Source of the DNA: Chrysomallon squamiferum
Taxonomy: Eukaryota > Animalia > Mollusca
Direction: 5' to 3'
Length of the DNA: 64,000 bases
Assembly: GCA_012295275.1 (NCBI GenBank)
Contig: CM022670.1
Location: 36,704,001 to 36,768,000 of the forward strand
This document shows, in pieces, positions 22,172 through 54,462 of the stretch. Each line of letters begins with the position of its first letter. Positions within the stretch are counted from its first letter, which is position 1. Made by a program: the position numbers and the translations under genes. The notes under the pieces are model-generated. The model searched no databases. It had not been told where the DNA came from and saw nothing but the letters and a program-made list of their open reading frames with translations.

Positions 22172-23181
22172 TCACAGACGTGTCACCTCAACCTCAAGAA
22201 CTGCAGGCTCATCATCTTGTTGCCATGACAACTTCACAGAGCCTTGCGAACTCAGGCTTCCGGTAGCTTTCTTAGAACGGGTGTCAACAAAGCTGTTTTT
22301 AGACGAATTGACAAAGAAGACGTCGTTCTGTTTGCTGCTGTCTGTCAGCCAACTCTGATGTTTGCCTGACGTCACTGACAGAACATCGAGTTCAAGCTGC
22401 GATGCTGTTGCAGAATCGTCGCAATTGCCCGGACAGTCGTCAAAAACACTGGCGTAGCTGCTGATACTCTCTTGAGACCGACGTCTTTCGGGCGACGTCA
22501 TCTGATCAATGTCACTGTCGTTTGATGCACGGTTTGCGGGTGTCTCTCTTTCGACTGGTGTCACACGATCCGTGTCGCTGGCACTCGATGTGCGACATGG
22601 TAACTGCCGAATTTCCGGCTTCCTTCCTTGGTCAATGTCACTGTCGCTGAACTTGAGTTTCCTCACAAACACTTTCCCAACAACCGGCTGACAGTTACCC
22701 TCAGCAGAACACCCCCCAGAACAACCCTGTTCAGAAAACATTTCACTGCTGCTACTACTACTATTAACTGTTTCACTGTTACCTTTCTGTTTCACTGATG
22801 GAAGTGAAACAGAAGGACAAACCCTGCAGGCCGGGTTTCCAGTTTTTTTCTCCTTGCAAGCGACCGTTTTAGAAACATCTTCGTGTCTGTTGTTCTGCAG
22901 CTGCAGCAGTCGCTTTCTGTCAACGTCAATGCTCGACAGACCGGAACGTCGGCATGGCGAGGTCAGCTTGGACGAACTCGCTCGTGTCGTTGGTGAAACT
23001 CTGCGTACTGACGATGTCAGCTGTCTGCTCTTTTCGTGGTCACTGGTGTTGTGCCAAGAGTAACGTTGTGACGGAAACATGGAGTTGAGGCTGTTTGTGT
23101 TCTTTATGCACTGAAGGGACAGATGTTGTGGTCGCTGATTCTGCCATGATACTCGTCTTTGTTTTTTTCTTCCTGGTTCTT
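22172..23181 (-). CDS. Unit B last exon (Ser/Arg-rich disordered tail)
   Basis: About 1-kb GC-rich ORF after a ttttaacag acceptor, ending ...EVEVTRL*; entry phase is off by one relative to the preceding donor. Confidence 0.8.
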
Positions 23182-51900: not shown

Positions 51901-54462
51901 TCTATATCTAACATTTTTATTCTATCTACATATTGTTCTGAAAGAAATTACATAATATTATTTCAATAAATTGTCTAGATATAATACCTTCTGATTGTAT
52001 TGTTCTTTATTCAATGTAAATTAACATATTATTTCTCTAAATATTGCACCTGTGTGAAATGATATAATATTTTTTATTGTATCTATATATATACTGTCCT
52101 GTATGAGATAACAACATTATTGTTTCTATAAATTGTTTGAATATCACATTTTTATTGCACCTTTACACTGTTTTGTGTGGAATAACAACATAATAAATCT
52201 ATAAACTGTATAAATATAACATTTTTATTAGCCTATATCGTTATTCGGCTCCATATCAAATAACATTATTTCTTTAAATTATCTAGTTTGTGACATAACG
52301 TAATATATGTGATTCTCTAAATTGTTTCATGTGATATATCAAAATATATTACATATCTAACAATACAGGTGTATGCAATCAAGGGTGAGAACAGTATCAG
52401 GTGTGAGAAAGGTTATATATATAAAAAAAAAATCTAATTCTAGAGTTCTGTTTAATGTTGTGCCAGGAAAATGTCAAGTGTAACATATATTGTTTCTGTT
52501 TTTATTTCTTTGTAAATAAATCAGCCAGCGTTTTGAATGTTAAATAATTGAAAGTACTGGCGTCTTTCTCATGTGCAATTTTAATTCACATTATTAATTT
52601 ATAAAAGATTAATTTAAAAAAAAATAGAGAGACAGAAAGAAAAACAGTCATGTTTTTATTATGTTGAAGAGGATAATTAAATTAATTGCATGTCATTCTA
52701 AAGGGTAATGAAAAAGAAACAAACAAAACACACACACACATACAACTGAACTGCCCAACAGATATGTATATACTTATACAGACAAAAATGGATTGAGAGA
52801 GAGAGAGAGAGAGAGAGAGAGAGAGAGAGAGAGAGAGAGAGAGAGGGAGATTAAGAAAGAACATATTATATTAATATATTAACATAAATAAAGATTTGGT
52901 ACAGGTCCAAAAATCCCAAACAAAATTGGCAAGTTAAAATATAATTTAAAGTCTGTTCACAGACTGGGTTAGCTGGTATGTGTGCGTCAGTAAGTACATA
53001 TTATTTCTTAGCTCACTGAAATCTTTAAGAACTATTTCAATTTTGTGACAGCAAAACTTCTCAAAACCTGGTAAAACGTTTTGGATGGTATAGCGTTTTG
53101 GTTGACTGACGATTTAGGTGTCTGATAAACAAAATGGCTGTGTTAATGAGAAACCTCATCAAACCAACCATTTTACATTTAGGTGTTTGATAAATAACTG
53201 TACTGCAAAAACTGTTAGCTTTTTTTTAGAGAAATTCCCGTTTAGTGAGGGTTCAGTTTTTTGGGAAATTTCACAGTAAATGTCATTGTGACCTTCAAGA
53301 ACTTTTTTTGTGTTGTGAAAAAAAACACCCAAGTTAAACAGTCTGAGATGAAAGACTGCACTGCAAACAAAATATGCAGAAAGTATCAGTTGTATGAGTC
53401 TCAGAGGAATCATAAATAGAACACATTGCCAATACACTGATTTCTTCCAACTCCAGTCATCTCACTAGAAATGATTTCTCCTGATTCAAGTTAGTAAACT
53501 GGAAAACAGATTATTTGTTTTAATGCATATTAATTGATTACAAAATCCCATATTTTTTTTTTTATTATTATTATTATTTTTTTTTTTTTTTTGTTGACTT
53601 TTCAAAATATATTTCTGTTTCAAGAAAGCAGTTTTGAATTTTATTAGATCAGGTGGTTAGAAAATAGTATTCATTACTTGAAAATCAAATGATGTGAAAA
53701 TAGCCTGTTTTTTCCTTGCATATGCATGTTAGTATACTAGAAAATAGTATTTGTTATCCAGAACATAACAACATTTTTATATTTTAATGAATTAAGACCT
53801 GTAACAAATAAATTAAAAACACTCTGGCACTTCATCATATTAAAAACAGAAGATAAAAAAAAGGTAAACAAGTATTTAATAATATTTTTAAAAACTAAAT
53901 GTTAATGATAACTTAAAAAGAAAATAATAGATAGACCAAACAAACAAATATTAACAAAAGAATCAACAACACATTTGAGAAAAAACAAAGAAAAATCTGC
54001 ACTAACATACATGTCAACAAATATGCAGTCTCACTCTATCACACTCAATGCATCCATGCATACACAAATCCACATACATCCACCCACACCCACACACCCA
54101 TCTCTCACCCATCTCTCACCCATCTCTCTCTCTCTCTCTCTGTCTCTCTGTCTCTCTGTCTCTTTCTCTCTCCCCCCCATCAAAACAAAACCAGATAGTT
54201 ATGAAAATCTACCTCCACCATTATGTGCTGCAAGAGCAGGGAACTGCAGGACGTTCTTAAATCCGACAACAAAACTGAAACACATGAGAAGGTTTTCCAA
54301 CTTCTTGTCCCAGGAGATCTGCACCTGGTTCTCTGCCTCGGATTCATTATCCTCATCGTCCTGGTCTGACCGGGGTAGATTGAGTGAACTTTCAAAGTTA
54401 TCATCACCCACGAGAACCTGGTTGGAGCCTTGCATGTCTGAGTCTTCTGTCTGCCTTGTCAT
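22172..54462 (-). CDS. Gene 2: predicted tandem double-SLC6 protein (degenerate unit A + GlyT-like unit B + long tail), ~26 exons, ~1750 aa
   Basis: Phase-consistent AG/GT exon chain from ATG 54462 to 23922, including the in-frame A-to-B junction 39115/36925. One phase mismatch remains at the final exon (23181-22172). Confidence 0.7.
23922..24043 (-). CDS. Unit B tail exon
   Basis: ttgcag|[41 protein letters not shown]|gtgtgt; donor position uncertain (an alternative gtaagc lies 39 nt further on). Confidence 0.65.
24021..24613. repeat. ~60-bp minisatellite, ~10 copies, overlapping the exon acceptor
   Basis: Unit gtaaagaaagtatgattttaatgttcagccatatttaattaattactgcctatttatcagctttgttatagatgtt. 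Confidence 0.92.
25379..25543 (-). CDS. Unit B tail exon
   Basis: ttgtag|[55 protein letters not shown]|gtagag, 165 nt, phase 1-1, GC-rich. Confidence 0.8.
27143..27214 (-). CDS. Unit B tail exon (72 nt, symmetric)
   Basis: ttacag|[24 protein letters not shown]|gtaaac, phase 1-1. Confidence 0.55.
27982..28117 (-). CDS. Unit B exon (post-TM12, WGP motif)
   Basis: ctgtag|[45 protein letters not shown]|gtaaaa. Confidence 0.85.
29059..29232 (-). CDS. Unit B exon (TM12)
   Basis: ttccag|[35 protein letters not shown]|gtcagc, 174 nt. Confidence 0.9.
29669..29869 (-). CDS. Unit B exon (TM10-11)
   Basis: tgcag|[22 protein letters not shown]|gttagt, 201 nt. Confidence 0.92.
30409..30653 (-). CDS. 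Unit B exon (TM8-9)
   Basis: ttcag|[30 protein letters not shown]|gtaagt, 245 nt. Confidence 0.93.
31414..31538 (-). CDS. Unit B exon (TM7)
   Basis: ttcag|[41 protein letters not shown]|gttata, 125 nt. Confidence 0.92.
32070..32308 (-). CDS. Unit B exon (TM5-6)
   Basis: tacag|[45 protein letters not shown]|gtacgt, 239 nt. Confidence 0.94.
32839..32971 (-). CDS. Unit B exon (TM4)
   Basis: ttcag|[44 protein letters not shown]|gtaact, 133 nt. Confidence 0.93.
33503..33740 (-). CDS. Unit B exon (EL2, Cys-rich)
   Basis: ttcag|[26 protein letters not shown]|gtaagt, 238 nt, phase 1-2. Confidence 0.9.
34316..34459 (-). CDS. Unit B exon (TM3)
   Basis: aatag|[48 protein letters not shown]|gtgaga, 144 nt. 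Confidence 0.93.
34596..34645. repeat. Perfect 23-bp inverted repeat with a 4-nt loop
   Basis: ctttattttatattttaagtata-tatt-tatacttaaaatataaaataaag. Confidence 0.9.
36000..36131 (-). CDS. Unit B exon (TM2)
   Basis: ttcag|[45 protein letters not shown]|gtagat, 132 nt. Confidence 0.94.
36715..36925 (-). CDS. Unit B TM1 exon (no internal start codon)
   Basis: ttccag|[70 protein letters not shown]|gtaaaa, phase 0-1. Confidence 0.93.
37709..37729 (-). CDS. Candidate alternative first coding exon for stand-alone unit B (MKRVFVL)
   Basis: ATG AAG AGA GTT TTT GTT CTG|gtaagg: strong phase-0 donor, in frame with the 36925 acceptor. Confidence 0.4.
39115..39297 (-). CDS. Unit A C-terminal/linker exon ending in a splice donor
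   Basis: cacag|[61 protein letters not shown]|gtaact, 183 nt, phase 0-0. Confidence 0.85.
39115..54462 (-). CDS. SLC6 unit A: intact reading frame but degenerate transport motifs (637 aa)
   Basis: 11 phase-consistent exons with no stops or frameshifts; exon lengths match or sum to those of gene 1. Confidence 0.88.
40144..40314 (-). CDS. Unit A exon (TM12)
   Basis: ttcag|[32 protein letters not shown]|gtgagt, 171 nt. Confidence 0.88.
40311..41010. repeat. ~32-bp minisatellite, decaying distally; the first unit supplies the exon acceptor
   Basis: Unit taccctgaaaaacacaatataacacatcaaaa. Confidence 0.9.
42980..43180 (-). CDS. Unit A exon (TM10-11)
   Basis: ttcag|[30 protein letters not shown]|gtaagt, 201 nt. 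Confidence 0.92.
43968..44212 (-). CDS. Unit A exon (TM8-9)
   Basis: aacag|[44 protein letters not shown]|gtgaga, 245 nt. Confidence 0.9.
45000..45228 (-). CDS. Unit A exon (TM6-7)
   Basis: ttcag|[42 protein letters not shown]|gtgagt, 229 nt. Confidence 0.9.
46324..46458 (-). CDS. Unit A exon (TM5)
   Basis: tgcag|[45 protein letters not shown]|gttagc, 135 nt. Confidence 0.9.
46978..47110 (-). CDS. Unit A exon (TM4)
   Basis: ttcag|[44 protein letters not shown]|gtaaca, 133 nt. Confidence 0.9.
47820..47934 (-). CDS. Unit A exon (EL2, Ser/Thr-rich, no Cys)
   Basis: tacag|[38 protein letters not shown]|gtatgt, 115 nt, phase 1-2. Confidence 0.85.
48216..48332 (-). CDS. Unit A exon (TM3)
   Basis: tgcag|[39 protein letters not shown]|gttagt, 117 nt. 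Confidence 0.9.
50253..50384 (-). CDS. Unit A exon (TM2)
   Basis: ttcag|[45 protein letters not shown]|gtaaag, 132 nt. Confidence 0.92.
54213..54462 (-). CDS. Unit A N-terminal/TM1 exon (acceptor at 54477, first ATG 54462)
   Basis: [45 protein letters not shown]|gtagat. Confidence 0.88.

Follow-up and report, generated by a model that had tools for sequence, protein, structure and literature searches.

Transporters of the SLC6 family normally have one 12-helix unit per chain, as in human PROT (SLC6A7, PDB 9wml), GlyT1 (SLC6A9, 8wfi/8wfj) and GlyT2 (SLC6A5, 9hue) and in Drosophila CG5549. Here we describe a gene of the mollusc Chrysomallon squamiferum in which this trait does not hold: two SLC6 units, A and B, stand in one reading frame on the minus strand of a 64,000-nucleotide (nt) stretch of DNA (the window; assembly GCA_012295275.1, contig CM022670.1, positions 36,704,001 to 36,768,000). 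By sequence and fold, unit B is nearest to the four transporters named above; it differs from them in sitting behind a second unit, in an Asp at the position of LeuT N286 (21 of 21 mollusc sequences) and in a tail of 300-700 residues. The fused mRNA is almost certainly a regular mollusc product, and residue comparison makes it very probable that unit A lacks ion-coupled transport. On balance, the sequences lean towards an obligate one-to-one pair in which B would perform Na+-coupled amino-acid uptake and A would be a tethered non-transporting partner.

SLC6 units have been joined in the laboratory. In the accessible text of PMC8247324, an engineered hSERT-rGAT1 concatemer of two units joined C-to-N folds and works, and the role of SLC6 oligomers is treated as an open question; the accessible part of PMC8310414 describes working KAAT1/CAATCH1 concatamers, again two SLC6 units in one chain. 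Such constructs combine two active transporters, whereas in molluscs the fusion is a natural and old one, and one of its halves is degenerate. Non-transporting partners that aid trafficking or tune activity are known from B0AT1 or SIT1 with ACE2 or collectrin, from SLC7 with SLC3 and from pseudo-enzymes; ACE2, collectrin and SLC3 are separate, unrelated proteins, whereas unit A is a degenerate transporter copy in the same chain. No description of a two-unit SLC6 architecture was found in the literature searched, which covered few subscription journals and no supplements, and no papers were found there for six gene identifiers of database orthologues. Two-unit proteins are already in the databases, unnamed, and their architecture is apparently undescribed in that literature.

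The window has the base composition of AT-rich animal DNA. Mapping of abalone and Gigantopelta proteins revealed two consecutive SLC6 exon sets on its minus strand, and 25 exons were placed from 54477 to 22172, all 24 introns being GT-AG (Table 1). In the spliced model the reading frame is open from exon 1 across the A-B junction through both units, as the sequence-only reading had claimed for the splice 39115-36925. Re-reading of the exons also bore out its last exon of unit A (39297-39115, with a phase-0 donor, GTAACT) and its start of unit B (36925, phase 0, no Met before the first transmembrane helix, TM1). Left unspliced, exon 11 of unit A reads 11 more codons to a TAA at 39081-39079; the TM1 exon of unit B is preceded by tttccag, with an in-frame stop seven codons up in the intron. 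The donor at 39115 scores 8.6 bits by a leave-one-out matrix from this gene's donors (range 1.2-13.4), and the acceptor at 36925 is the weakest among 25 (1.7 bits).

Four sequencing runs were compared with positions 35950-40400: three RNA runs from one study (X1, X2 and X4) and X3, for which the kind is not recorded. One 439-nt contig of X2, with a depth of 3.3, covers 39263-39115, 36925-36713 and 36129-36053. Positions 39114-36926 are skipped, the shorter flank being 149 letters, and the contig spans both the A-B junction and the next intron, which supplies junction RNA of the kind that had been proposed as a check. The junction is present, at low depth, in one of the three RNA runs; X4 covers unit B exons only, and X3 covers introns as DNA would, with no A-B or other joint in this region. 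In X1, one contig joins 37709 to 36925, with 82 letters on the short side. The exon so defined (37790-37709) has a strong donor (11.2 bits) and a poor acceptor (-0.4 bits), and it contains an ATG, at 37729, that shares the frame of unit B; inserted as a cassette behind exon 11, it would halt translation at once. The preferred reading is a candidate first exon of a B-only form, the other being a frame-breaking cassette exon. Given this upstream exon with its in-frame ATG, a B-only form may exist, and the single product first envisaged does not account for the X1 contig. One Octopus vulgaris isoform likewise begins unit B with 12 residues of its own. Another contig from an RNA run lies wholly within the junction intron (38420-38715; 11 differences, 4 gaps) and is pre-mRNA, DNA carry-over or a piece of an A-only or B-only untranslated region.

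Orthologues were found across the molluscs. The linker exon alone retrieved four mollusc proteins of 1305-1645 amino acids; a junction-region query added gastropods, bivalves, a chiton and cephalopods, and cluster look-ups added Patella vulgata, Crassostrea angulata and Physella (the labels Mytilus, P0020, and cuttlefish, P0034, are inferred from neighbours). A linker profile scores 55-115 bits on all 34 junction-spanning mollusc proteins, most of them gene models and six of them part of the profile build; double-SNF proteins with a conserved linker are what the sequence-only reading had proposed to look for. Against 1.84 billion representatives the same profile gave ten matches, and the five that carry organism names are all molluscs. 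Searching with a profile of 18 fused proteins, word-limited and at a strict cut-off, returned only five proteins, already known, and is uninformative on breadth. Entries for orthologues are labelled 'uncharacterized' (XP_071087647.1, Haliotis; XP_033743037.1, Pecten; XP_036359291.1, Octopus; XP_064608266.1, Liolophura). The two full-unit matches to PF00209 that had been expected were obtained in orthologues: in four of four tested it is the sole Pfam match (665-994 bits, in two to three stretches), and two unit-length matches were mapped. Gigantopelta is the closest relative (83% identity in unit B, 80% in a partial unit A), followed by Haliotis (69% and 52%); exon 11 is 87% identical to Gigantopelta and 57% to scallops and abalone.

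Nine proteins present only in Logan contain both units, one of 1555 amino acids on 6099 nt and eight of 2029 amino acids. The 2029-residue open reading frame (ORF) lies on one contig of 7752 nt and on seven of 6400-6426 nt (eight of the 15 listed members of an 18-member cluster). As these seven leave less than 340 nt outside the ORF, we infer that they must be spliced cDNA. Two-unit ORFs thus occur in other molluscs, and orthologues are not always two genes.

Several of these observations would suit two neighbouring genes with their own transcripts, the joined transcript being a minor read-through or the joined protein being cut in the linker: the exon with an in-frame ATG spliced to B in one of three RNA runs, the weakness of the B acceptor, the RNA contig within the junction intron and the 14 AATAAA/ATTAAA hexamers that this intron holds, a number to be expected at this AT content. 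Four submitter or older annotations are split or B-only (Mizuhopecten, Patella caerulea, Sepia and one Octopus vulgaris isoform), and a single-unit relative in Lingula bears the same tail motif. However, the donor position is conserved across classes: the scallop submitter annotation divides the gene at the very codon boundary of the window junction, and at that point five short genomic ORF calls continue into intron with mutually unrelated tails, as is the case for intron sequence. The nine full-length two-unit ORFs on cDNA-sized contigs also speak against separate genes, and comparison of the linkers showed no shared basic cleavage or protease motif, which argues against separate products. 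We regard this explanation as quite improbable.

Merged tandem SLC6 models, such as those of hamster, frogs and butterflies, are common (27 in one search) and could suggest that the fusion is an artefact of annotation or assembly. None of the 27 carries the linker (at most 11.4 bits, with no match at all in 10 of them), the four merged pairs placed in the tree are lineage-specific sisters, and the junction is seen in RNA at the window locus. An artefact is hardly credible, and this reading is largely refuted. Butterfly double-SNF models of 1222-1407 amino acids from three genera (P0054, P0055, P0056 and P0064) have no linker in common with molluscs and are merged annotations or an independent fusion.

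As assembled, the ORF from the ATG at 54462 encodes 1430 amino acids, since an A7 run close to the beginning of the last exon (23168-23162, minus strand) breaks the frame, which then meets a stop at 23106-23104. The length of ~1750 amino acids first proposed is approached, at 1741, only with the long 3' ORF beyond this run. Because that ORF matches the Gigantopelta protein to its C-terminus, the break is likely a one-base assembly error; if real, it would delete the PDZ-type end. At the 5' end, no credible match to an upstream coding exon was found in 54481-64000 of the window, and the orthologues of Bradybaena, Physella and Patella caerulea also start MT- near the likely ATG of unit A. Just upstream of exon 1 lies a tandem repeat of ~60-nt units (54500-55330), in which several frames are open for >200 codons.

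To compare the two units, 21 mollusc A/B pairs were aligned with single-unit SLC6 proteins; two A rows are without TM1, hence 19 for TM1 sites. Sites were read by motif on bat GlyT2 in this alignment, and the LeuT-numbered names used here are those we take to apply to the motifs so placed. Each of 15 sites (gates R5-D369 and R30-D404, Na1/Na2, Cl and substrate) is kept in 20-21 of the 21 B units, and unit B of the window has all 15, Asp at N286 being counted as allowed. The same Asp is found in all 21 mollusc B units, in Owenia B and in one Aplysia transporter; in the window it lies in TM7 (31538-31414, minus strand). Manduca KAAT1/CAATCH1 has an Asp, D338, at the N286 position, associated with K+ acceptance and weak chloride dependence in the accessible text of PMC8310414. 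The likeness is a lead on ion coupling, not a test, and KAAT1 and CAATCH1 differ in being single units from another SLC6 branch. Unit B of the window also has a Trp at F259, like GlyT2, in which W482 holds the equivalent position; according to the accessible part of PMC9564218, this Trp alone does not fix glycine specificity. Both equivalences, N286 and F259, follow PMC8310414 and PMC9564218. At the sequence level unit B resembles GlyT/PROT, the best matches of scallop unit B being PROT, GlyT1, GlyT2 and CG5549 (E 1e-168 to 1e-160).

Unit A, ~30% identical to unit B, has lost most of these residues. Both gate arginines are gone (R5 0/19, R30 0/19), and retention is low at G26 (4/19), N27 (5/19), Q250 (3/21), F253 (4/21), S290 (2/21) and D369 (2/21) and intermediate at Y108 (10/21) and D404 (9/21). 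In the window 6 of the 15 sites are kept (G24, N27, T254 as Ser, S290, T355 and D404). Conservation within unit A is highest in TM2, intracellular loop (IL) 1, TM6-IL3 and IL5 (0.62-0.69) and lowest in extracellular loop 4, TM12, TM8, TM9 and TM3 (0.41-0.49). The earlier description of two complete transporters therefore stands for topology, with 12 helices each, and fails for the transport residues of unit A, which are degenerate in all molluscs examined.

Structure was modelled with AlphaFold on residues 110-1307 of the abalone orthologue (1198 residues) from a shallow, 44-row alignment. The mean predicted local confidence (pLDDT) was 81, mostly 80-94 in both units, and the modelled unit A retains all 12 helices and the breaks of TM1 and TM6. 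Foldseek placed GlyT2, GlyT1, dDAT and PROT as best matches, each to one unit, i.e. B (41-43% identity, TM-score by target 0.85-0.89); by sequence, scallop unit A aligns end to end with GlyT2 (E 3e-91). The A-B interface sought from such a model was not defined, the predicted template-modelling score (pTM) being 0.56 and linker residues 550-630 having pLDDT <50. The spliced product of the window has 23 hydrophobic peaks. Its 94-residue linker, considered as an extra membrane helix, was rejected as such, with a hydrophobicity maximum of 1.13, under helix level; being too little hydrophobic to cross the membrane, it would leave both units facing the same way.

Could unit A still move a different solute, as an uncoupled uniporter or leak channel, making the protein a two-function transporter with locally coupled halves? 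The 12 helices and TM1/TM6 breaks of the model would allow it, as would the mostly kept G24, T254, S/T355 and Y268; the tandem model of the annelid Owenia has two canonical-looking units, and proximity couples activity in the engineered hSERT-rGAT1 concatemer, as far as the accessible text of PMC8247324 goes. We nevertheless think it unlikely: by the counts given above, no mollusc A has an intact gate salt bridge, and at G26 a bulky or charged side chain is frequent (Lys in the window).

Phylogenetic analyses, in trees of 51 and 28 rows with support from the Shimodaira-Hasegawa-like approximate likelihood ratio test (SH-aLRT) only, place the two halves in separate mollusc clades. In the 51-row tree the 12 A rows form one clade (SH-aLRT 100) and the 12 B rows another (97); over both trees support is 97-100 for unit B and 100 for unit A, the latter with much longer branches. 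Mollusc A and B group with the single-unit Lingula protein and both Owenia units (91, and 96 in the 28-row mixture-model tree), in a group that adjoins arthropod GlyT-like proteins and whose internal order is unresolved. Exon lengths of 132, 133, 245 and 201 nt are common to A and B. The region TM5-TM7, 364 nt throughout, is divided into 135+229 nt in A, 239+125 in B and 135+104+125 in the neighbouring SLC6 gene, so that A and B have each lost a different intron and the neighbour keeps both. The intron pattern fits an old tandem duplication followed by fusion. We infer that a lophotrochozoan GlyT-like gene was duplicated in tandem before the chiton/gastropod/bivalve/cephalopod split and that, between these two events, the last exon of the first copy would have recruited a phase-0 donor.

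The Owenia tandem model (P0028/P0140/P0141), with two canonical-looking units in the same clade as the mollusc pair, was considered as the same fusion and not upheld: against a profile built without it, its linker reaches 8.4 bits, no better than the background of 8.6, and its units are unresolved in the trees. It may be the fusion with neither unit degenerated, or else a merged annotation. The chiton linker, treated in the same way, scores 8.9 bits; the trees are the ground for keeping the chiton as an orthologue. In the window, a third SLC6 gene, an ordinary-looking single unit, lies at 442-14414 (plus strand), tail to tail with the fused gene and with its 5' end beyond the window.

The tail after unit B contains a block conserved across molluscs. 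Of 29 mollusc proteins, 26 carry a TQT motif in the tail, as does the single-unit protein of Lingula; Physella is without it, by eye. In the accessible text of PMC3078936 the LC8/DYNLL consensus is [D/S]-K-X-[T/V/I]-Q-[T/V]-[D/E], which the window motif, a candidate, fits at all positions but K-3. Most mollusc proteins end in T-x-L/F. The T-x-L end of the last exon is presumably a class I PDZ-type ligand.

This tail also bears on a further explanation, in which the fused protein acts chiefly in sensing or scaffolding (a transceptor), with A binding a ligand or lipid in a remodelled central site without moving it and signalling through the linker and the LC8/PDZ-type tail, and with B's transport secondary and dispensable in some lineages. 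Besides the long disordered tail with its frequent TQT motif and T-x-L/F end, it would explain a near-invariant Thr that unit A has of its own at the pocket position F259 (20/21), together with the conserved TM6-IL3, and the drift of unit B in two pulmonates, Bradybaena (P0032) and Physella (P0191), in which the linker stays. There W8, G20 and T354 are changed and the branch is long, which fits a non-transport role of the whole protein in these species. Yet the TM1, TM3, TM8 and TM10 positions that surround A's site change without restraint from one mollusc class to the next, as would not be expected of a conserved ligand site, and outside the pulmonates B's transport residues are near invariant. 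We consider a mainly sensory protein rather unlikely.

The reading that we favour is an active B with a tethered, non-transporting A. Both units would insert the same way up, with 12 helices each and the 94-residue linker in the cytoplasm. Unit B would cycle on a small neutral amino acid, most probably glycine or proline; the Asp at N286 might make it weakly dependent on chloride or alter its choice of cation. Unit A would be conformationally idle; by way of the linker motif and of its own conserved loops on the cytoplasmic side, it would set how B folds, leaves the endoplasmic reticulum, is localised or works. Through its candidate motifs the tail would probably engage LC8 and a PDZ scaffold, and two chains would thereby become paired; the internal exon may supply B alone, giving cells forms with and without A. 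A fuller version, in which a pseudo-transporter protomer has controlled an active glycine/proline-type transporter since before the chiton/snail/clam/cephalopod split, with an internal first exon switching the partner off and an LC8 site pairing chains into a four-unit assembly, is possible and we put it forward tentatively.

Several points weigh against an obligate active-plus-idle pair. The window's own junction depends on one low-depth contig from one study, and the four annotations named above are split or B-only. Unit A keeps G24 (15/19), T254 (21/21) and Y268 (17/21), and its own Thr at F259 could mark a re-purposed site. In the two pulmonates unit B drifts too. Finally, the model (pTM 0.56 on 44 rows) predicts no fixed A-B arrangement, so that 'partner' may mean a tether only. 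Of the single gene for a covalent SLC6 heterodimer first proposed, the one two-unit gene holds, given the RNA contig, the intronless ORFs elsewhere and the conserved linker and junction-intron position; the two working transporters do not.

Table 1. Exons and related features of the fused SLC6 gene, in window coordinates.
Feature	Position	Strand	Evidence or remark
Unit A exon 1 (TM1)	54213..54477	-	likely start ATG 54462-54460
Upstream phase-0 acceptor	54477	-	allows a longer N-terminus of unit A
Unit A exon 2 (TM2, 132 nt)	50253..50384	-	protein mapping, splice model
Unit A exon 3 (TM3)	48216..48332	-	protein mapping, splice model
Unit A exon 4 (extracellular loop 2)	47820..47934	-	weak donor (1.2 bits); placed only from frame and splice sites
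Unit A exon 5 (TM4, 133 nt)	46978..47110	-	protein mapping, splice model
Unit A exon 6 (TM5, 135 nt)	46324..46458	-	protein mapping, splice model
Unit A exon 7 (TM6-TM7, 229 nt)	45000..45228	-	protein mapping, splice model
Unit A exon 8 (TM8-TM9, 245 nt)	43968..44212	-	protein mapping, splice model
Unit A exon 9 (TM10-TM11, 201 nt)	42980..43180	-	protein mapping, splice model
Unit A exon 10 (TM12, 171 nt)	40144..40314	-	protein mapping, splice model
Unit A exon 11 (C-helix, WGP motif, conserved first linker half)	39115..39297	-	183 nt, phase 0 at both ends
Junction intron (2189 nt, GT-AG, phase 0)	36926..39114	-	spliced out in RNA contig, run X2
Alternative exon spliced to 36925	37709..37790	-	RNA run X1, one contig
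Unit B exon 1 (second linker half, acidic, Ser-rich; canonical TM1)	36715..36925	-	RNA and splice model
Unit B exon 2 (TM2, 132 nt)	36000..36131	-	exon 1-exon 2 junction in 2/3 RNA runs
Unit B exon 3 (TM3)	34316..34459	-	protein mapping, splice model
Unit B exon 4 (extracellular loop 2, 4 N-glycosylation sequons)	33503..33740	-	mapping, splice model
Unit B exon 5 (TM4, 133 nt)	32839..32971	-	protein mapping, splice model
Unit B exon 6 (TM5-TM6, 239 nt)	32070..32308	-	protein mapping, splice model
Unit B exon 7 (TM7, 125 nt; Asp at LeuT N286 position)	31414..31538	-	splice model, alignment
Unit B exon 8 (TM8-TM9, 245 nt)	30409..30653	-	protein mapping, splice model
Unit B exon 9 (TM10-TM11, 201 nt)	29669..29869	-	protein mapping, splice model
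Unit B exon 10 (TM12, 174 nt)	29059..29232	-	protein mapping, splice model
Unit B exon 11 (C-helix, WGP motif)	27982..28117	-	protein mapping, splice model
Tail exon with block conserved across molluscs	25379..25543	-	protein mapping, comparison
Tail exon with LC8/DYNLL-type TQT motif at 23942-23922	23883..24043	-	splice model, comparison
Last exon, disordered tail, T-x-L class I PDZ-type end	22172..23181	-	protein mapping, comparison

The gene fixes the stoichiometry at one to one with unequal protomers, so that an effect of the partner on trafficking or transport can be tested by removing unit A, and the possible natural B-only isoform would be the control. It would offer a natural test case for why SLC6 transporters pair, and it adds a candidate pseudo-transporter, present throughout a phylum, to a family of drug targets under intense study. 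For annotation, some double-SNF gene models, usually dismissed as merged, are real, and mollusc SLC6 counts that split this gene are off. If the fuller version put forward above is true, the neurotransmitter-transporter family would gain its first regulatory subunit of pseudo-transporter type and its first natural concatemer.

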